Positions 9,474-25,764 of a stretch of DNA of 25,767 bases are shown piece by piece. The stretch comes from a virus, in the IMG/VR virus record IMGVR_UViG_3300032167_000022. One strand, written 5' to 3'. A program made the translations under genes and the position numbers. Position 1 is the first letter of the stretch. Every line of letters begins with the position of its first letter. The notes beneath the pieces are model-generated. The model was not told the origin of the DNA. It ran no database searches and saw nothing but the letters and a program-made list of their open reading frames with translations.

Positions 9474-9686
9474 TTATTTAACTACTACCTCCACATCTAC
9501 TTTTTCTACTGCTTCATAAGTATTAATCCATAATGTATGGCCACTCTCAAGAGAAACTGCGTCGCCCGAATTTGAGCCTAACTTATATAATTTTAGATAA
9601 AGATTACCATGATAGAGGAAAGCATCTCCGGGGTTAAGTTCATTAAAAGACATGACGAAATATTTTTGACTATAAGTAATTTTCAT
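9474..9686 (-). CDS. hypothetical protein
   Basis: 70 aa ORF with RBS AAGGAGA 8 nt before the ATG; first gene after the promoter at 9719. Confidence 0.7.
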   Translation of the reverse strand: MKITYSQKYFVMSFNELNPGDAFLYHGNLYLKLYKLGSNSGDAVSLESGHTLWINTYEAVEKVDVEVVVK

Positions 9687-9718
9687 TATTTTATCTCCTT
9701 TTTTTATTTTGTATATAT

Positions 9719-9747
9719 ATTATATCATATTTTTTTATAAATGTCAA
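9719..9747 (-). promoter_or_regulatory. promoter cassette TTGACA-17-TGaTATAAT
   Basis: tgtcaa at 9742-9747 and attata at 9719-9724, then tca. Confidence 0.7.
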
Positions 9748-9769
9748 TAGAGTTATTGTTAATTAGAAA

Positions 9770-9990
9770 AGGGTAAAATTTAATAGTTAGTAAAATTTTA
9801 GGTAATTTTTCATAGTTAGTAAGTAATATTTTTATTAATTTTTTAATAGAAATATTATTAGAATATTACTTTTAAAAAAGGTAAAATTACCTAAAAATAT
9901 TGGACAAAAAAGGTAAAATATAAATAAATGAAATTGAAATAATTGTGCGACTAGAAAGGTAATTTTTCATAGTTAGTAAAATTTAGATTG
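9770..9990. repeat. iteron cluster (about 22-bp repeats AGGGTAATTTTTcATAGTTAGTAA) upstream of the rep-like gene
   Basis: Copies at about 9776-9798, 9812-9835 and 9955-9985, plus related AGGTAAAAT half-sites at 9880-9925. The last copy abuts the rep RBS. Confidence 0.6.
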
Positions 9991-10001
9991 GAGGTTTCCT
10001 T

Positions 10002-10685
10002 GTGGTAAAATCAAAAGATTAGATTGAAAAAAGGTTTCCTGCGGATACTACATTAGATTATGAAACTTTTTTAAATACAAATACATTAGATGGTGAATTG
10101 TATGGATTGTTATAGTCTATTTCAATAGCAGAAAAAGTTTGTAAAAAAGATGATAAGGGTGTGGCTTATGAAGTATATGAAACAGTAGTAAAGAAATCAA
10201 TTATTCCAAAACAAATAGATATGTGTGAAAAATTAAAAATTAAAAGTCCAAAAACATTAAGAGCGCATTTGAAGTCATTAAAAGATTAGGGGTATTTAGT
10301 GGAAAAAGAGAATGGAGATTATTATTTGCCAGTAAAAGAAAATATTTATTTAGATATTCCTTTAGCAACTTTAGAATATTTATAGGATAACTGTCGGGAA
10401 CATATTATTAAAATTTATATTTATTTAGTTTAGAAATATAAATATAAAGAAGATTAGAATAAAAGATTAAAATAGTAGGAAAATTATATTTTTACTTTGA
10501 ATGAAATAGCAGAACATATAGGTATATATATAAAAAATAATTAGAGAGCTTATGATATAATTAATCACGCTTTAGAATTATTATATAATTCAAAATTAAT
10601 TGACTATGAAACCATTTATATTAATAAAGTACCAAAGAAAAAATTATTAAATGTATCTTTAGTATATAATAGTAAAAAGAAATAA
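10002..10685 (+). CDS. Rep-like (two winged-helix segments) replication initiator candidate, open only if TAG is read as sense (9 in-frame TAGs)
   Basis: GTG at 10002 follows GGAGGT by 6 nt. Codon-by-codon reading has no TAA or TGA until the TAA at 10683. TAGs lie at 10020, 10113, 10287, 10383, 10431, 10455, 10473, 10476 and 10542. The translation has WH-like segments KQIDMCEKLKIKSPKTLRAHLKSLKD.GYLVEKENGDYYL and FTLNEIAEHIGIYIKNN.RAYDIINHALELLYNSKLIDYET. Flanked by iterons. Confidence 0.55.
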
Positions 10686-10770
10686 AAGGGTAATTTTTAA
10701 TAGTTAGTGAGGGCAATTTTTAATAGTTAGTAAAAAGGAAAAAAGGGTAATTTTTCATATTATATCTAAA
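10686..10770. repeat. iteron copies downstream of the rep-like gene
   Basis: aaaagggtaatttttaatagttagtga, gggcaatttttaatagttagtaa and a partial third copy. Confidence 0.55.
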
Positions 10771-10796
10771 TAATACTAAAAACTAAATAATTAACA

Positions 10797-10836
10797 AAGC
10801 GAAATTTATGTTCCAGCTATCGCTTGGAACATAAAT
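10797..10836. repeat. perfect 15-bp inverted repeat (gaaatttatgttcca N9 tggaacataaatttc)
   Basis: Seen directly. Followed by ttatagaaaattttttt; a candidate terminator or operator between the rep-like gene and the 10902 ORF. Confidence 0.5.
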
Positions 10837-10901
10837 TTCTTATAGAAAATTTTTTTCTGTTGATAGGGGCGGAAAACTGAAGTGAAAAAGGAGAATTCAA
10901 A

Positions 10902-11123
10902 ATGGAAGTCGGTTTTGTAAAATTAAGTGAAAATGATTATCATTCAGGTTTATCAGAGGTTGCGAAGCAGCCTCATAGAAAAGTAAAAGAATTGTATATA
11001 GATGAAACAACTGGAAAAATTTTCTTTGTTTTAGAAAATAAAAGAAGAGTTGATAAAGATAAAAAAATATGCTATAATATATTTGAAAATAAAAATGAAA
11101 GAGAGGATAATCCTTTTTTATAG
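10902..11123 (+). CDS. hypothetical protein (possibly extended to 11182 if TAG is read through)
   Basis: RBS AAAAAGGAGAAT before the ATG. It ends at a TAG; the same frame continues through a second TAG to a TGA at 11180-11182. Confidence 0.55.
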   Translation: MEVGFVKLSENDYHSGLSEVAKQPHRKVKELYIDETTGKIFFVLENKRRVDKDKKICYNIFENKNEREDNPFL

Positions 11124-11224
11124 GGTATGAATTTTAATTTTGATGATGCGGATTCTATTTTATAGAATGTATTTGAAAAATGAAATGAAAAAGGGACCCT
11201 TTCAGAAAGGTGAATTGAAAACTC

Positions 11225-11536
11225 ATGAGGCATTGTGGTACGTATGGTTATAAAAATGTTTATTTAATTGATAGAGATAATTATTTTTTGAATGAGAAGA
11301 ATAAGGATAAAGAGAATTATTTTATTATTGAAGATGATGATAGGTGGTTAGTTTTTAAAGGTAAAGTTGTTGGTAGAGTAGGATTAGATATGAAAGTTAA
11401 AGAGTTTGGGAGCAATAAATGTTGGGTATATGAAAAGTTAAAGAAAGAGAAAGAAAAGGAAAAAGATAATTATTTTAGTCAATATAGTACGGTAGTTGAT
11501 AAGTTTTTTGCGGAATTGAAAGAGGTTAAGTTATGA
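11225..11536 (+). CDS. hypothetical protein, K/E-rich
   Basis: RBS AAAGGTGA before the ATG; 103 aa; its stop overlaps the next start (ATGA). Confidence 0.55.
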   Translation: MRHCGTYGYKNVYLIDRDNYFLNEKNKDKENYFIIEDDDRWLVFKGKVVGRVGLDMKVKEFGSNKCWVYEKLKKEKEKEKDNYFSQYSTVVDKFFAELKEVKL

Positions 11537-11733
11537 TAGGGGTCGCGGCAGGTGTAGTAGTTGGCTTGGTGCTAGGCGCAGTTGTTAGGTATGTGTTGAA
11601 AAGAGTTTCTTTTTCTTCTGCTCTTGGATGTTGGTTGTTGAGAGGGTTTGAGGCGGAGGAGAGGAAGAGGTTTAAGGAGATTGGCAAGGAGAGAAGGAAG
11701 TTGTTGCGGCAGGGAGTTATTTGGGTGTTGTGA
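11533..11733 (+). CDS. small protein with N-terminal TM helix and basic C-terminus
   Basis: 66 aa, MIGVAAGVVVGLVLGAVVRYVL...; ATGA overlap; GC-rich. Confidence 0.45.
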   Translation: MIGVAAGVVVGLVLGAVVRYVLKRVSFSSALGCWLLRGFEAEERKRFKEIGKERRKLLRQGVIWVL

Positions 11734-11736
11734 TAG

Positions 11737-11870
11737 TAGGTAGGTAACAATATAGATAATAGGTAGTAGGTAGTAAGTAATAGGTTGATAATGGATAACA
11801 ACTGTATAGATAATAGATAATAATTATATAGATAATAATAAGTAAATAAAGTAATAAGTAATAAAAATTG
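11737..11870. repeat. C-depleted purine/T low-complexity block rich in TAG, GTAA and ATAA motifs
   Basis: tgatagtaggtaggtaac...ataggtagtaggtagtaagtaatagg...atagataatagataataatt... has almost no C on plus and stop codons in all frames. It is followed at 11915-11965 by a pyrimidine-only tract. Confidence 0.6.
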
Positions 11871-11966
11871 CGAAAATTGGAGAGGTGTCGTGCCGTTCGG
11901 CTCCACTAGACACTCATCACTTTTCCCTCGTCATCGTCATCCCTCATCCTTTCTTAATAAAAAATA

Positions 11967-12110: not shown

Positions 12111-12557
12111 TTAAATACCATTGTTCTTAAAGAAAGTATCAAAAACATTATCCAAATTAGACTTATCAGTCTTAATTGAGAGGGTAGCATTGCCAGGCTT
12201 CAGCATATGAGCAAAATTACCAAACATAGAGAATGCTTCGCGCATTTCCGCAACAGTTTCATCAACCAAATCAACAAGGTCTTCTGCGGTGATATCAATA
12301 TCCTTATACTGGGCGGCAAGGTTGGGGTACCAGCGCTTAATGTAGGCTGCGATAGCATCCTTCATCTTGCCCATGTCCGCAATCTTATCTGCCCTCTCCT
12401 GGACCTTCTTTCTAGCCTCTTCTTCCTTAGCCTCTGCTCTCTTGGCTTCGTCAATCTTTTTTGCCTCGTTCAGTGCGGCGGTGAATTCCTTGGCAATATC
12501 ATCTACAGATTTGCCCTCCTGAATCATCTTAAGAATGTCATTAGAATTGTAATTCAT
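12111..12557 (-). CDS. hypothetical protein, charged helical N-terminus
   Basis: 148 aa ORF with RBS AAGGAGAT 8 nt before the ATG and a TAA stop. Confidence 0.75.
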   Translation of the reverse strand: MNYNSNDILKMIQEGKSVDDIAKEFTAALNEAKKIDEAKRAEAKEEEARKKVQERADKIADMGKMKDAIAAYIKRWYPNLAAQYKDIDITAEDLVDLVDETVAEMREAFSMFGNFAHMLKPGNATLSIKTDKSNLDNVFDTFFKNNGI

Positions 12558-12589
12558 AATTTTATCTCCTTTTTTTATTTTGTATATAT

Positions 12590-12618
12590 ATTATATCATA
12601 AATTTTTAAAAAAGTCAA
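12590..12618 (-). promoter_or_regulatory. promoter cassette TTGACT-17-TGaTATAAT
   Basis: agtcaa at 12613-12618 and attata at 12590-12595, then tca. Confidence 0.7.
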
Positions 12619-12740
12619 ATTTCGGCATTTTAAGCCACGCAAAAAAATTTTTGAGTAAATGTGAGGGAGAGGGTCTTTATTTAAGCCGTAGCTCTCAATA
12701 GATAAGCACTGGCGTATCTCTGGAGAAATCGCGCGTTCAT

Positions 12741-12778
12741 AAAAATTTTACAAAAATTTTTACAAAAATTTTACAATT
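12741..12778. repeat. tandem repeat (AAAAATTTTTACA) x3
   Basis: ttttacaaaaatttttacaaaaattttacaa seen directly. Confidence 0.6.
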
Positions 12779-12779
12779 C

Positions 12780-13050
12780 CGGTCGGCTGGCTGGGGTACT
12801 AGAATTATAGGAAAATGCGCATATAGGCTGAGGGTCGCTAGAAGTAGCAAAAAATTCGCATATGGGGGTCCGAACGGGAACTCGGTCCGCAGCGCCCGCG
12901 CCCGGACCGCTTGACAGGTGTAGAATATGGGAAAATCTGGCTGGACTGGAAAATCCTGGAAATCGCCGCAAAATTTTGTAAATATGGTAAAAAATGGAAA
13001 TCCCGCCCTGCGCGAGCGCAATCGGGCGGCGCAAATGTGAACAAATCTAT
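12780..13050. other. GC-rich non-coding island with repeated GGAAAAT and gcatatgg motifs and several GC hairpins
   Basis: Only spurious overlapping ORFs and no RBS. Hairpins include cggtccg..cggaccg and cgccctgcgcgagcgcaatcgggcggcg. Repeated motifs include ggaaaatgcgcatatagg, aaaattcgcatatggggg and ggaaaatctggctggactggaaaatcctggaaatcgcc. Confidence 0.4.
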
Positions 13051-13100
13051 CATAATTTGTAAACAAATTATTTTTGTATAAAATAACGAAAAAGAAGTGG

Positions 13101-13370
13101 TCATTTGACCACTTCTTCAATAAATGAACCAAGGCAATTAACAATGGTTGTTAAATTGATATATTCATTCAAATCATCAGAATAATAATCGTCATCACCA
13201 AAAATGTTGTCATTGTTAATTTTTTCCAAAATAGCAAAAGCTGTTCGTAACTGCTCTTTAGCGCCCTGTTTTTGATGTGATTTAATAGCACTTTCAACGT
13301 TAGCAAGCTTCTGTTTCAAAGCATTGTATTCGTTCATTAAATCAAGTAAAGTTTCTTCATTCGGCTTCAT
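13101..13370 (-). CDS. hypothetical protein
   Basis: The track ORF starts at TTG 13448, but the SD GGAGGA precedes the ATGs at 13370-13379. Reads MKPNEETLLDLMNEYNALKQKLANVESAIKSHQ... with a TGA stop. Confidence 0.6.
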   Translation of the reverse strand: MKPNEETLLDLMNEYNALKQKLANVESAIKSHQKQGAKEQLRTAFAILEKINNDNIFGDDDYYSDDLNEYINLTTIVNCLGSFIEEVVK

Positions 13371-13944: not shown

Positions 13945-13988
13945 TTTATTTTACTCTCTTTCTCCCCCCCTCTCTGGGGGGTACTATT

Positions 13989-14017
13989 ATTATACCATAC
14001 TTTGCGCGATTTGTCAA
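13989..14017 (-). promoter_or_regulatory. promoter cassette TTGACA-17-TGgTATAAT with 5' leader hairpin
   Basis: tgtcaa at 14012-14017 and attata at 13989-13994, then cca. Leader cccccccagagagggggg (reverse complement of 13958-13978). Confidence 0.75.
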
Positions 14018-15981: not shown

Positions 15982-16061
15982 GGTATCAATCCTTTCAGCT
16001 GTTTAGGTTGCCAACCTTTTAATTTGTTTGCCGTGGTAGGTTTCCCTCACCCGGTATATAT

Positions 16062-16090
16062 ATTATACCATACTTTATGGTATTTGTCAA
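16062..16090 (-). promoter_or_regulatory. promoter cassette P1 of a tandem triple (TTGACA-17-TGgTATAAT)
   Basis: tgtcaa at 16085-16090 and attata at 16062-16067, then cca. UP-like ttgaaaaacttttcaaaaacc upstream. Confidence 0.75.
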
Positions 16091-16223
16091 GGGGTTTTTG
16101 AAAAGTTTTTCAAAAATTTTTTGCGATACTATCAAGATTTGAAGTCAATTTATCGCATTTTGGACTTCACTTGATGAGGAGATTTTTTACGAGGTTTTAC
16201 TCACCCTCGCCCCTGACATATAT

Positions 16224-16252
16224 ATTATACCATACTTTGAGCGATTTGTCAA
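16224..16252 (-). promoter_or_regulatory. promoter cassette P2 of the tandem triple
   Basis: tgtcaa at 16247-16252 and attata at 16224-16229. No ORF between it and P1. Confidence 0.75.
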
Positions 16253-16330
16253 GGGGTTTTTGAAAAGTTTTTCAAATTTTTTTGAGTGGCTTTCGGCGTC
16301 CCCGCGCATCCTTTTGTTTGGTACATATAT

Positions 16331-16359
16331 ATTATACCACACAATCACGTTTTTGTCAA
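16331..16359 (-). promoter_or_regulatory. promoter cassette P3 of the tandem triple
   Basis: tgtcaa at 16354-16359 and attata at 16331-16336, then cca. Confidence 0.7.
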
Positions 16360-16632
16360 GAGGTTTTTCAAAATTTCTCAAAAAATTTTTTCAATATCCA
16401 AGAACAAGTCAGATTGTCAATTTTTGGTAATGGTATAATATGTGAACGAGTCTATGTTCATTTGTTAATTTTTTATTACGGGAAAACGGCTAATTCACTT
16501 GATTGTTAATAAAATGTTTACAATTTTTTTATACGATATCTCTTGACAAAATTTCGCCCGTGACCTCCGGCCGCGGGCGACTCAAAAGTCAAGTGTTTTT
16601 TATAAATAATTTGTAAATAAATTATGAATGCC

Positions 16633-16668
16633 AAAAGTAAAAGAAAGAGAGGGGCTTGCGCCCTCTCC
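16633..16668 (-). terminator. rho-independent terminator
   Basis: Hairpin gagaggg-gcttgcg-ccctctc; the reverse complement is followed by tttcttttactttt. Confidence 0.6.
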
Positions 16669-16671
16669 TTA

Positions 16672-16905
16672 TTAAAATTCAAGAATCGGAATATCATCTT
16701 CCGCCGCATACACGCCGATAATTTCTTCACCATTATGAAGTTCACAGCGTGCCAGCAGTCTGTTTGTGATAATTTCTTTTGCTTCGGAATAATCTTCATC
16801 TTCTCCAAAAGTGGTAGGGTCTTTATGGATTTCATGAAGTCTTTCAAAAACTTCTTCATTTACATCCATTTCAATCGTGCGATAAAGTGTAACAGCAACT
16901 TTCAT
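16672..16905 (-). CDS. hypothetical acidic protein
   Basis: 77 aa ORF downstream of the promoter at 16948; TAA stop. Confidence 0.7.
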   Translation of the reverse strand: MKVAVTLYRTIEMDVNEEVFERLHEIHKDPTTFGEDEDYSEAKEIITNRLLARCELHNGEEIIGVYAAEDDIPILEF

Positions 16906-16947
16906 TTTATTTTACCTCTTTCTCCCCCCTTTATTGGGGGTACTATT

Positions 16948-16976
16948 ATTATATCACATTTCTTCGGATTTGTCAA
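16948..16976 (-). promoter_or_regulatory. promoter cassette TTGACA-17-TGaTATAAT with leader hairpin
   Basis: tgtcaa at 16971-16976 and attata at 16948-16953. Leader cccccaataaagggggga. Confidence 0.75.
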
Positions 16977-16982
16977 GGGGTT

Positions 16983-17240
16983 TTACAAAATTTCTACATT
17001 TTCCCACCAATCTATAAGTTTTACTTCTGTATAATAAGTATCCCACGATTCTTTTTTCTTTTTATCCCATTCTTCTTTTGCTTTAATAAATTTTTCCTGC
17101 ATATCTGTTTCGCTGGTGTAAGCACCCGTATAAAAAATTGTCTCTTTTGTCCAGTTGCCACGAGAGCCTTGTCCACCATCAACATAACAAGCGGGAACAT
17201 AAATTTTTGCCATTTTCATTTGCTTTACAATTCTTGTCAT
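16983..17240 (-). CDS. hypothetical protein
   Basis: 85 aa ORF; its stop overlaps the UP region of the next promoter. Confidence 0.7.
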   Translation of the reverse strand: MTRIVKQMKMAKIYVPACYVDGGQGSRGNWTKETIFYTGAYTSETDMQEKFIKAKEEWDKKKKESWDTYYTEVKLIDWWENVEIL

Positions 17241-17287
17241 TTTATTTTACCTCTCTCTTTTAGTGCCCCCTGTATTGGGGTACTATT

Positions 17288-17316
17288 ATTATACCACACT
17301 TTTGCTTATTTGTCAA
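17288..17316 (-). promoter_or_regulatory. promoter cassette TTGACA-17-TGgTATAAT with leader hairpin
   Basis: tgtcaa at 17311-17316 and attata at 17288-17293. Confidence 0.75.
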
Positions 17317-17333
17317 GGGATTTAGTAAAATTT

Positions 17334-17657
17334 TTATTCATTAAAAATATATTTCATTGTTTCATTTACCAAATCTTCATCATCATAAATAAATGCATAA
17401 CCATCTGCTGTACAAGCAAAAATAACTGCTTCATCTGCTTTACAATATGGTTTAACAATTTCATCCAGTAAATCACACAATTTATCAAAAGTTTTTCTAC
17501 GTGTCACAACATCTGTTTCTTTATAATGTTTATTTATATATATTGATTTATCAATAATCTGTTTGAAATCATTATTGTTTGTTTCAATTTTAATGATGCG
17601 ATGTCCAGTATCTTCTTCATCCATTTTACGTTTTGCTAAAATAATACCAAGTTTCAT
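17334..17657 (-). CDS. hypothetical protein
   Basis: 107 aa ORF. Confidence 0.7.
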   Translation of the reverse strand: MKLGIILAKRKMDEEDTGHRIIKIETNNNDFKQIIDKSIYINKHYKETDVVTRRKTFDKLCDLLDEIVKPYCKADEAVIFACTADGYAFIYDDEDLVNETMKYIFNE

Positions 17658-20082: not shown

Positions 20083-20166
20083 GGTATCAATCCTTTCAGC
20101 GTAGGTCGCTACCCATTATTTTTATTTTACCGATTGGAGGTCGTGCCCTCTTGCTTCGGTATATAT

Positions 20167-20195
20167 ATTATATCATACTTTGAGCGATTTGTCAA
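20167..20195 (-). promoter_or_regulatory. promoter cassette TTGACA-17-TGaTATAAT
   Basis: tgtcaa at 20190-20195 and attata at 20167-20172. Confidence 0.75.
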
Positions 20196-20226
20196 GGGGT
20201 TTTGCAAAAGTTTTTGAAAAATTTTT

Positions 20227-20333
20227 TGGAGGCAGTGGTAGGAGTTGAACCTACGTTTTCCAATGGCGAACGTTTCCATTTGTTGTATCTCAAGCCATCT
20301 TTATGGAAATAGAGCCGCTTCTATCTCACTGCC
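20227..20333 (-). tRNA. tRNA-like element, atypical length (104 nt plus encoded CCA)
   Basis: The minus strand reads GGCAGTG...atag-aagcggct-ctat...gtagg-TTCAACT-cctac-CACTGCC-t-CCA. It has a 7-bp acceptor stem, a D-arm with GG, and a canonical T-arm and loop. The anticodon region carries about 16 extra nt (a 23-nt loop between tccat and atgga), and no clean anticodon was identified. Confidence 0.4.
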
Positions 20334-21156: not shown

Positions 21157-21198
21157 TGGTCTATCTCTCTTTCTACCCCCTGTATCGGGGGTATATAT

Positions 21199-21227
21199 AT
21201 TATATCATACTTTGAGCGATTTGTCAA
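21199..21227 (-). promoter_or_regulatory. promoter cassette TTGACA-17-TGaTATAAT with leader hairpin cccccgatacaggggg
   Basis: tgtcaa at 21222-21227 and attata at 21199-21204. Confidence 0.75.
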
Positions 21228-21256
21228 GGGGTTTTGCGAAAGTTTTTTAAAGATTT

Positions 21257-21460
21257 TTAGCGGGGGAAAAAGCAAGCACTTCTGTCATTCCATACTACTA
21301 TGTATTTGTCGCCATTGACTTCTTCTACTCTGTGAAGGGTGGCTTCGTAGAAACCGCATTCCATGAGCGCGTTATACTCATCACGGGCATCATTGAAATT
21401 ATTGAATTGGGTTACTACGCCCTCAATTTCTACCTCAAAATAAATTTTAGTGTTAGTCAT
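21257..21460 (-). CDS. hypothetical protein
   Basis: The true start is the ATG at 21460 (RBS AGAGAGG; MTNTKIYFEVEIEG...). The track's longer version translates the promoter. Confidence 0.65.
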   Translation of the reverse strand: MTNTKIYFEVEIEGVVTQFNNFNDARDEYNALMECGFYEATLHRVEEVNGDKYIVVWNDRSACFFPR

Positions 21461-23267: not shown

Positions 23268-23384
23268 TGAATATTCTGTAAATAGATTGTGAAGTTTCTG
23301 TGAACTGGCCTATTGGTAGTTTCAGGAAATGGGAAACATATGCGAATTATCCAGTTTTTGCCATAAAAAATGCGGAATTAGGTG

Positions 23385-23435
23385 GCCATTAGAAATACCG
23401 CTCGTTTCGGGTGGTAAACGCCCGGAAACGAGCGG
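23385..23435 (-). terminator. rho-independent terminator (11-bp stem)
   Basis: ccgctcgtttc...gaaacgagcgg; the reverse complement is followed by tatttctaat. Confidence 0.55.
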
Positions 23436-23454
23436 GCGCCCACAATTGTAAATT

Positions 23455-24960: not shown

Positions 24961-25270
24961 TTTGTTAACAAAAAATTTACAATTTAAAAATTTACAATTT
25001 GTTTACATTCGGGAGAATTTGTTCACAATTTATTTACAATTTATTTAAAAAAAAATATTGAAATTCACAGTTTGTTCACAAATTCGGGCCCTGGGGCCCG
25101 AGAACAGAGATAATTGTGAACAAATTGTAAATTTTTTGTTAACAATTCATAAATTGTTAACAAAAAATTTACAATTTGTTCACAATTTGTTCACATTCGG
25201 GAAATAAAAAGTTTACAATTTGTTCACAATTTGTTTACAAAAAATTCACAAATTGTTCACAATTTGTGAA
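24960..25270. repeat. dense array (more than 20 copies) of an 11-12-bp repeat ACAATTTGTTCACA / TTGTGAACAA with three TCACAttCGGG punctuations
   Basis: Examples: tttacaatttgtttacattcggg, aatttgttcacaatttatttacaattt, aattgtgaacaaattgtaaat, tttacaatttgttcacaatttgttcacattcggg, ttcacaaattgttcacaatttgtgaac. Confidence 0.7.
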
Positions 25271-25399
25271 CTCCGGCCGCTTGGAACGCGAGCGGCCGGC
25301 TCAAAATCAAGCATATTTTGTAAATAATTTGTAAATTAAAAATGAATTTTTTGTAAACAATTTATGAATTTTTTATTCATAGAAATTTTACAATTTGTT

Positions 25400-25709: not shown

Positions 25710-25726
25710 TAGGTTTTTGAAAAGTT

Positions 25727-25764
<38 letters not shown>

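Follow-up and report, generated by a model that had tools for sequence, protein, structure and literature searches.

What does a stretch rich in guanine and cytosine (GC), and devoid of any credible gene, do in the middle of an AT-rich phage genome? The question is raised by about 270 nucleotides (nt) at positions 12780-13050, hereafter the island, of the IMG/VR virus record IMGVR_UViG_3300032167_000022, whose full length of 25,767 nt we call the window. A first-pass annotation of the letters alone had offered two candidates for it: a structured non-coding RNA (ncRNA) or a protein-binding regulatory platform. Our analysis favours, with an assurance that only somewhat outweighs our doubt, not one single element but a composite, non-coding control region between genes, on the sense (minus) strand of a series of small early genes. 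Between the two initial candidates, the regulatory platform appears to fit better than a single ncRNA, judging from the palindromes, phased A-tracts, conserved boxes and variable spacer of the region.

The island is indeed a compositional outlier, with a GC content of 51.7% (somewhat below the 55% or so first estimated) against 34.7% in the window, which places it at the 98th percentile of 271-nt windows. Three coding stretches equal or exceed this value, and among the non-coding gaps the one that holds the island is the richest in GC, its best 130-nt stretch reaching 58.5% GC against at most 50% in the other gaps. This richness is distributed unevenly, from 84% in the hairpin at 13002-13032 to 54% in 12794-12930, 35% in 12931-13001 and only 18% in 13033-13077.

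A repeated terminator-like cassette in the right third of the island

The island occupies part of a 543-nt gap (12558-13100) flanked by two minus-strand genes, encoding 89 amino acids (aa) on the upstream side (13101-13370) and 148 aa on the downstream side (12111-12557) in the minus-strand sense. It lies between the terminator of the first gene and the near-consensus promoter of the second (Table 1).

Table 1. Features in and around the island, with positions in the window
Feature	Position	Strand	Remarks
Sigma-70-type promoter	12590-12618	-	TTGACT-17-TGnTATAAT, near-consensus, 11/12; promoter of the 148-aa gene (12111-12557) by sequence
Tandem repeat	12741-12776		11-nt unit AAAAATTTTAC, 3.2 copies; precedes the island
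Box 1 of direct repeat	12799-12827		CTAGAATTATAGGAAAATGCGCATATAGG; 29 nt, 39-nt spacing
Box 2 of direct repeat	12838-12866		CTAGAAGTAGCAAAAAATTCGCATATGGG; core kept in both allelic types
Candidate three-way junction	12853-12933	+	helix 12853-12862/12923-12933, small hairpin 12863-12881, and H2; RNAalifold
Hairpin H2	12883-12909		outer stem of 7-8 bp in four or five compensated versions
Most variable segment	12910-12966		1-nt and 2-nt indels, many substitutions between types W and R; diversity 0.13-0.26
Six A-tracts (T-tracts on the gene strand)	12945-13002		10-nt phasing; predicted intrinsically bent DNA
GC hairpin H1 and T-run	12988-13029	-	hairpin 13002-13029 (-16.8 kcal/mol), then ATTTCCATTTTTT; second, terminator-like element of the cassette
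A/T box	13033-13075	-	ATAATTTGTTTACAAATTATGATAGATTTGTTCACA; first element of the cassette; conserved; two TTGTnnACA(A/T) palindromes
Intrinsic terminator T1 of the 89-aa gene	13078-13118	-	perfect 12-bp stem 13091-13118, then T-run; terminator scan

In the direction of the genes, terminator T1, which is nearly identical across all relatives of the locus, is followed by a conserved A/T box, whose palindromes map at 13057-13066 and 13035-13044, and by the GC hairpin H1. This segment (13075-12966) is, by sequence comparison, one of at least six paralogous cassettes, all of them on the gene (minus) strand, with paralogues in six other gaps (19235-19107, 14693-14590, 21701-21563, 25332-25241, 16625-16529 and 23482-23332). 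The paralogues were found with a sequence-only model of the module, with matches covering its first ~100-150 positions (13071 to ~12935); for the remainder beyond ~12935 the same model found no paralogue. Once aligned on the minus strand, the cassettes share the A/T box TTTATTTACAAA...TTGATTTGTTCA with its 10-bp TTGTnnACAA palindromes, a GC hairpin (-16 to -24 kcal/mol) followed by a T-run, and an A/T-phased stretch leading to the next promoter. As box, hairpin and T-run are common to the aligned copies, 13075-12966 can be regarded as a second terminator-like element behind T1. H1 itself combines a GC stem with a nearby U-tract, as intrinsic terminators do (13029-13002, minus strand), and it is invariant in the relatives except for one G>A change in contig L021 (diversity 0.007-0.044). 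The TTGTnnACA box would be a candidate operator of a phage regulator.

Six A-tracts follow, centred at 12951, 12961, 12971, 12981, 12991 and 12999, in a segment that is nearly invariant among relatives. Their 10-nt periodicity was matched by none of 500 shuffles, for a sub-window picked post hoc. These tracts give a different sense to the GGAAAAT-containing motifs initially highlighted, which are present and whose A-tracts are phased, but which are not enriched as words in the island.

The tandem repeat that precedes the island had also been noticed, as three copies of a 13-mer; the repeat exists, with the shorter unit given in Table 1. It lies beyond the portion shared with more distant relatives, and contigs L007 and L008 miss one 12-nt unit.

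A locus-specific insert with a covarying hairpin

The rest of the island (12965-12794) is a segment unique to this locus, known in two allelic types about 22% apart, here called W and R. Its left part carries two direct repeats: the gcatatgg repeats of the first-pass annotation do exist, and turned out to belong to two 29-nt boxes, 76% identical and 39 nt apart (12799-12827 and 12838-12866). The spacer between them (12828-12837) is a substitution hot spot of constant length. Both allelic types have retained the box cores, their 39-nt spacing and the pairing of the hairpin H2, and the two boxes may be operator sites of a phage regulator, for which they are candidates on the basis of their sequence. 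At 23335-23382 there are two AWATGCG(R)AATTA words, 30 nt apart, similar to the box cores and in opposite orientation, which adjoin a long GC hairpin (23398-23436).

The strong hairpins noticed in the island are two, H1 (13002-13029; -16.8/-17.2 kcal/mol) and H2 (12883-12909; -15.5/-18.4 kcal/mol), and it is the second that offers the clearest covariation. Its outer stem reads CGGTCCG/CGGACCG in the window and L025, CGGCTCG/CGAGCCG in L007, CGGGTCGC/GCGACCCG in L008 and CGGCTCGC/GCGAGCCG in the R type and L030, while the upper part, GCG-CGGG-CGC, is invariant. Two pairs show a double compensatory change, and no pair is broken. Each of the five variants of H2 folds more stably as minus-strand RNA (-15.9 to -23.5 kcal/mol) than as plus-strand RNA (-11.8 to -21.0 kcal/mol). 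No T-run follows it on either strand.

H2 is under real structural constraint, yet this is not specific evidence for an ncRNA. The stems of the paralogous cassette hairpins at 14.6 kb and 16.6 kb vary among the same relatives with their pairing mostly kept, and because these hairpins change alike, the covariation of H2 can be seen as the usual behaviour of the GC hairpins of this phage. Template switching within inverted repeats can, besides, yield compensated double changes in the absence of selection. An attenuator, in which a GGTCCG copy at 12868 would pair with the 3′ arm of H2, was considered and rejected, the first copy being invariant and the arms of H2 changing together. A solitary repeat of a CRISPR (clustered regularly interspaced short palindromic repeats) system, or an RNA anti-CRISPR, was set aside too, as the hairpins of the island show no resemblance to type I-C or I-E repeats.

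Conservation, mosaicism and insertion among relatives

All relatives came from exact-protein look-ups alone, with the products of the flanking genes and of homologues of these as queries. Exact-pattern scans (four patterns) and one protein-based scan of IMG/VR, JGI metagenome contigs and GTDB genomes returned no match, nor did a DNA search of a phage database. The phage is present in dozens of metagenome assemblies, in contigs of up to 176-186 kb, and six contigs are identical to the window. The island module is present in relatives, from ~13077 to ~12795: type W comprises the window, L007, L008, L025 and the right-hand part of L030, and type R comprises L017-L022 and L027. Left of ~12795 the R type carries unrelated sequence, which opens with two tandem promoters (11/12 and 12/12) in gene direction. 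The 148-aa gene of the window is absent at the R-type locus, and in L021 (909-1018) and L022 (2047-2160) the tandem promoters aim into G-depleted DNA with opposite-strand genes, a convergent or antisense arrangement.

Against its closest relatives, the gap of the island is 94-96% identical and the flanking genes 80-92%. Intergenic gaps of the phage are mostly 0.94-1.0 identical, with three short ones at 0.83-0.91, and genes 0.73-0.94; since most of the larger gaps are equally conserved, this conservation does not single out the island. The mean pairwise difference among ten variants is 0.007-0.044 in 12960-13049 and 0.10-0.26 in 12780-12959, to be compared with 0.13-0.20 in the body of the upstream gene. 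For the unique part, the W/R difference of ~22% is comparable to the divergence at synonymous sites in the neighbouring gene (synonymous differences per site, pS, of 0.16-0.25). We thus discarded conservation as evidence for an ncRNA: all gaps are at least as conserved as genes, and the unique part is as diverse as the neighbouring gene.

Several contigs have a mosaic appearance. In L025 the module is 99.7% identical to the window, with a neighbour gene at 88.5% nucleotide and 79% protein identity; L007 and L008 have identical flanks and 17 differences in the gap; and P0023 is a W/R hybrid. In L030, a gene for a 203-aa NUMOD4/HNH_3 endonuclease (L030:786-1397) takes the place of window ~12910-12966, in the orientation of the flanking genes and with five in-frame TAGs. 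Many assemblies break at the hairpins, with contig ends at H1 (13000-13030) or H2 (12884-12888) in L010, L011, L023, L024, L026, L028 and L029, which suggests coverage loss or population heterogeneity at H1 and H2.

A proposed composite control region

How could these pieces work together? Transcription from the upstream gene would first reach T1 (13118-13078), and next the second terminator-like cassette (13075-12988), which recurs downstream of at least five other genes. It would then cross about 60 bp of phased T-tracts, predicted to be bent, as in other gaps, and finally enter the locus-specific insert of ~170 nt and 54% GC, with H2 and the two boxes 39 bp apart, an insert that in the more distant relatives directly adjoins a strong promoter. 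The whole region may insulate the transcription of gene cassettes that each have a promoter of their own, with its palindromes and boxes as candidate binding sites for a phage regulator. Its conserved block, in turn, could provide a homologous linker for cassette exchange and for insertions, such as that of the HNH endonuclease in one relative.

Several observations weigh against this proposal. Between the boxes and the promoter that follows there are ~175 nt in the window but ~0 nt in one allelic type, and such variation disfavours a strict promoter-proximal operator role. The GC content of the insert is 52-54% in both alleles against 21-39% in other non-coding DNA, and pure spacer does not explain this persistence. 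H2 is not a canonical terminator, because it lacks a U-tract. The evidence on the strand is also conflicting, as H2 favours the minus strand and the wobble changes the plus strand: one-sided changes that two further candidate helices accommodate as G.U pairs are no more than suggestive, and the H1 substitution of L021 would give a U.G pair on the plus strand and a C.A mismatch on the minus strand.

Comparison with known systems

The closest parallel to a composite control region of this kind is found in the T4-type phages, where promoter-early stem-loop (PeSL) cassettes have been described (Arbiol et al. 2010, PMC2839356; PMC4122927). These repeated units of promoter and stem-loop flank orphan genes, insulate transcription and mediate modular shuffling (PMC2839356). 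The likeness is extensive: repeated intergenic cassettes, a strong sigma-70-type early promoter with A/T-rich DNA upstream, a GC-rich stem-loop terminator (in some cases a hairpin directly after the -10 box), small orphan genes flanked within a plastic region, and conserved recombination linkers in mosaic genomes. In our phage, the strong promoter and the A/T-rich upstream DNA are found at this locus, and phased A-tracts precede promoters in other gaps; hairpins of -16 to -24 kcal/mol are followed by T-runs and are candidate terminators; at least six paralogous cassettes lie among small orphan genes; and gaps are at least as conserved as genes, together with mosaic exchange (L025, L007 versus L008, and P0023). 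As the anatomy agrees with the PeSL concept, we take the island to belong to a control region of this type. There are, however, clear differences, since this phage is unrelated in sequence and TAG-recoded, its cassette adds a conserved A/T box with TTGTnnACA palindromes before the hairpin, and the ~170-nt locus-specific GC-rich insert is foreign to PeSLs. PolyC/polyG stem-loops right after the -10 of early promoters occur at 13975-13995 and 21190-21205 (minus strand); they differ in stem length and loop from one relative or paralogue to another, a variation also described for the PeSLs of T4-type phages.

Other comparisons are more partial. H1 and its paralogues resemble intrinsic terminators in that a T-run follows a GC-rich stem on the gene strand, although the T-run of H1 is interrupted (ATTTCCATTTTTT). 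Throughout the window, A/T-tracts with a 10-11-bp phase precede near-consensus promoters, in the manner of upstream curved DNA or UP elements. In the island, by contrast, ~330-410 bp separate the phased tract, predicted to be bent, from the promoter that follows, a distance too great for a classical UP element. The NUMOD4/HNH gene, placed in a conserved intergenic block with homogenised flanks in one relative, recalls the free-standing HNH homing endonucleases, although the window itself lacks an endonuclease and homing is putative. Finally, a conserved non-coding locus with a covarying hairpin is reminiscent of phage small RNAs (sRNAs) and Rfam families; what the island lacks is a family, a promoter and terminator pair of its own and an overall fold signal, its covariation being confined to one helix.

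Alternative explanations

The alternative that survives best, and which we nonetheless consider unlikely, sees in 12965-12794 the ghost of a lost gene cassette, left behind after the deletion of an orphan gene or a homing endonuclease. A decayed promoter (TTTCCA-17-CATATT, 8/12), the hairpin H2 and duplicated flanking DNA would be its remains, and the low diversity of the adjacent block would result from homing-associated co-conversion. In agreement with this, the L030 endonuclease gene ends 13 nt before H2, the usual place of the gene-end hairpins of this phage, the ultra-conserved block stops exactly at the insertion point of that gene, and standard cassettes carry a GC stem-loop right after the -10. 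Moreover, the unique part changes about as fast as synonymous sites do in the neighbouring gene, and its GC content is similar to that of the GC-richer genes of the phage. On the other hand, it shows no protein or DNA similarity to the genes of the window or of the related loci, nor to any protein family (comparing it with the window by six-frame tblastn yielded no significant match, and a gene relic was rejected on that count), and the endonuclease is present in one contig only. A decaying relic, besides, need not retain the box cores, their 39-nt spacing and the pairing of H2, which both alleles do.

The first-pass annotation had considered a structured ncRNA, to be recognised by Infernal/Rfam searches and covariation, and in this respect the outcome is mixed. 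Repeated boxes and one compensated hairpin were indeed found, with a double compensatory change in H2 that no other helix shares. No Rfam family, promoter or fold signal accompanied them: the window and three relatives gave no match at the gathering thresholds, a scan at E-values up to 10 had as its best match one of 23 bits against a threshold of 85, and scans for tRNA and transfer-messenger RNA found nothing. Neither strand of the island, in the window or in L021, carries a sigma-70-like promoter site with a score of at least 9/12, and the fold of the 461-nt gap shows no excess of stability over shuffles (z-scores of -0.5 and -0.3). Against a single structured ncRNA speak as well the multi-copy nature of the right third, the gene-like variability of the unique part and the 0.7-kb insertion of L030.

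The most concrete form of this idea, a structured sRNA on the plus strand, antisense to the genes, seems to us even less probable than the ghost of a lost cassette. Such an RNA would start near 12812, after a -10-like TAGAAT/TAGTAT, end at an A/T hairpin with T5 (13052-13076), and contain the three-way junction of Table 1, which includes H2, as well as H1. The candidate junction is paired in 100% of 210 sequence-by-pair cells from 10 variants; three one-sided changes (a C>U opposite G and a CU/UC swap opposite GG) pair on the plus strand only; and relatives carry an extended -10-like word, TGCTAGTAT, at a fitting position. However, RNAalifold drew the junction from the same few, closely related sequences that were used to score it, and double compensatory changes occur in H2 only, a hairpin that is less stable on the plus strand in every variant. 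In neither allelic type does the plus strand carry a promoter-like site of at least 9/12 inside the island or upstream of it, the fold and the Rfam searches are as unfavourable as stated, the 3′ strand of the closing helix is replaced by a 0.7-kb gene in L030, and the right part is accounted for by the minus-strand cassette family. We give still less credence to an extended version, in which a clade-specific plus-strand regulatory RNA, antisense to early-gene read-through and built on the three-way junction, would carry H2 under diversifying but structure-preserving selection and would be tied to a TAG-recoded expression switch. If it were true, such selection on H2 might come from an arms race, the opponent being a host or phage factor that reads the stem sequence.

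A replication origin, or some other DNA-level assembly site, with iteron-like TGG(N)AAAAT repeats, bent DNA, GC hairpins and A/T-rich repeats, is a very improbable reading. Phased A-tracts, repeated boxes and palindromes would suit it, as would the adjoining A/T-rich 11-nt repeat and the winged-helix DNA-binding protein encoded 2 kb away. Relatives, moreover, have two tandem strong promoters followed by A/T-rich DNA, an arrangement reminiscent of the primary origin of phage T7. But six other gaps repeat the layout of box, hairpin and phased tract, so the site is not unique; the skew does not switch at the island, DnaA-box-like words were not seen, the iteron-like words are not enriched, and the insertion of an endonuclease is tolerated.

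That the island holds a small protein gene, be it an open reading frame (ORF) of 37, 57 or 135 aa or one of those opened by TAG readthrough in code 15, is scarcely credible. The claim that it lacks any credible ORF holds under codes 11 and 15, as no reading frame is conserved between W and R; the gene calling with translation table 15 that might have revealed one was checked too, and code 15, although valid for this phage, brings no conserved ORF, so that coding was rejected under codes 4, 11 and 15. Mechanical ORFs of 56-135 aa exist, none of them conserved in relatives, and a 1-nt insertion together with a 2-nt deletion shifts all frames between W and R. The 37-aa ORF (12927-13040, plus strand), called by JGI, loses its ATG in R-type relatives. 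The 57-aa plus-strand ORF, called by the ENA and Logan callers in all R-type relatives and preceded there, 10 nt upstream, by GAGAGGG, which resembles a ribosome-binding site (RBS), has ATA in place of its start codon in the window, where it is also interrupted by a TGA after H2 and carries a net -1 frameshift. Within the R type its ratio of nonsynonymous to synonymous differences (pN/pS) is 0.52, while the other frames give 0.61 and 1.59, its 15 variable sites are split 6/3/6 over codon positions, with no third-position excess, and it has no homologue outside the clade among 5.8 billion proteins. Between the window and its closest relatives, substitutions do favour one codon phase, a signal that we rejected, since it fails against the more distant, frameshifted allelic type. 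The 135-aa ORF (12737-13144, minus strand) has no start context, spans a terminator, is frameshifted in relatives and, among 1.84 billion proteins, matches only itself in a relative, with no homologue outside the phage clade. A minus-strand mini-ORF with an in-frame TAG (12862-12806) was rejected as well, six of its seven changed codons being nonsynonymous and coding constraint absent. A host-derived fragment or a phage attachment site (attP) was discarded for lack of any genome match in the scans described above.

The phage, its genetic code and other features of the window

Our preferred reading, a composite control region among early genes, has to be placed in a genome of particular code. 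The window contains small, mostly orphan genes arrayed on the minus strand, which we describe as small early genes of a TAG-recoded uncultivated phage; proteins encoded near the island have no or only weak family matches, and no T4 hallmark gene was seen in the window. Among 21 minus-strand genes, TAA is the stop codon in 19, TGA in two and TAG in none, and a plus-strand block (9963-11536) is open only with TAG readthrough, in agreement with ENA gene calls. TAG is read as sense, and code 15 applies to the phage. Gut phages are known to recode stop codons in this way (10.1101/2021.08.26.457843; PMC9523058).

A 2.2-kb block on the plus strand (9700-11900) has just 5.9% C on that strand and a GC skew of up to +0.89. 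Its genes, which include one for a winged-helix protein (HTH_11, E 1e-5) ~2 kb from the island, are open only with TAG as sense, and the C-depleted block sits inside a minus-strand early-gene array lacking TAG stops.

The promoters of the phage are of near-consensus sigma-70 type, and its ribosome-binding sites are AGGAG-like. The promoter region at 12590-12618 has a 66-nt copy at 9682-9747, and modules of promoter and RBS of 60-100 nt, 80-97% identical, occur at many gene starts (12553-12618, 9682-9747, 16900-16993, 17237-17335, 20166-20228 and 21167-21258); these repeats are likely to cause assembly breaks and to serve as recombination substrates. A gap of 690 nt (15982-16671) contains three tandem near-consensus promoters, TTGACA-17-TGGTATAAT, each with phased A-tracts before it and a GC-rich non-coding leader after it.

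Towards the end of the window, at 24962-25351, at least 12 palindromes TTGT(T/G/A)(C/A/T)ACAA with 11-nt phasing lie among GC hairpins (25085-25103 and 25271-25302). This array is a much stronger candidate than the island for a protein-binding platform, a centromere-like site or an origin. A run of 33 T is found at 25725-25757.

Conclusions

If the island is part of a composite control region, an uncultivated and large TAG-recoded phage would arrange its early genes in a T4-like manner, with a near-consensus promoter for each small gene. The conserved terminator cassettes between these genes would also serve as linkers for recombination and as places where mobile genes can land. The case also carries a caution for genome scans, where compensated changes in a hairpin are by themselves insufficient to establish an ncRNA, and where a GC-rich, conserved and hairpin-bearing island may be a patchwork of cassettes instead of an RNA gene.

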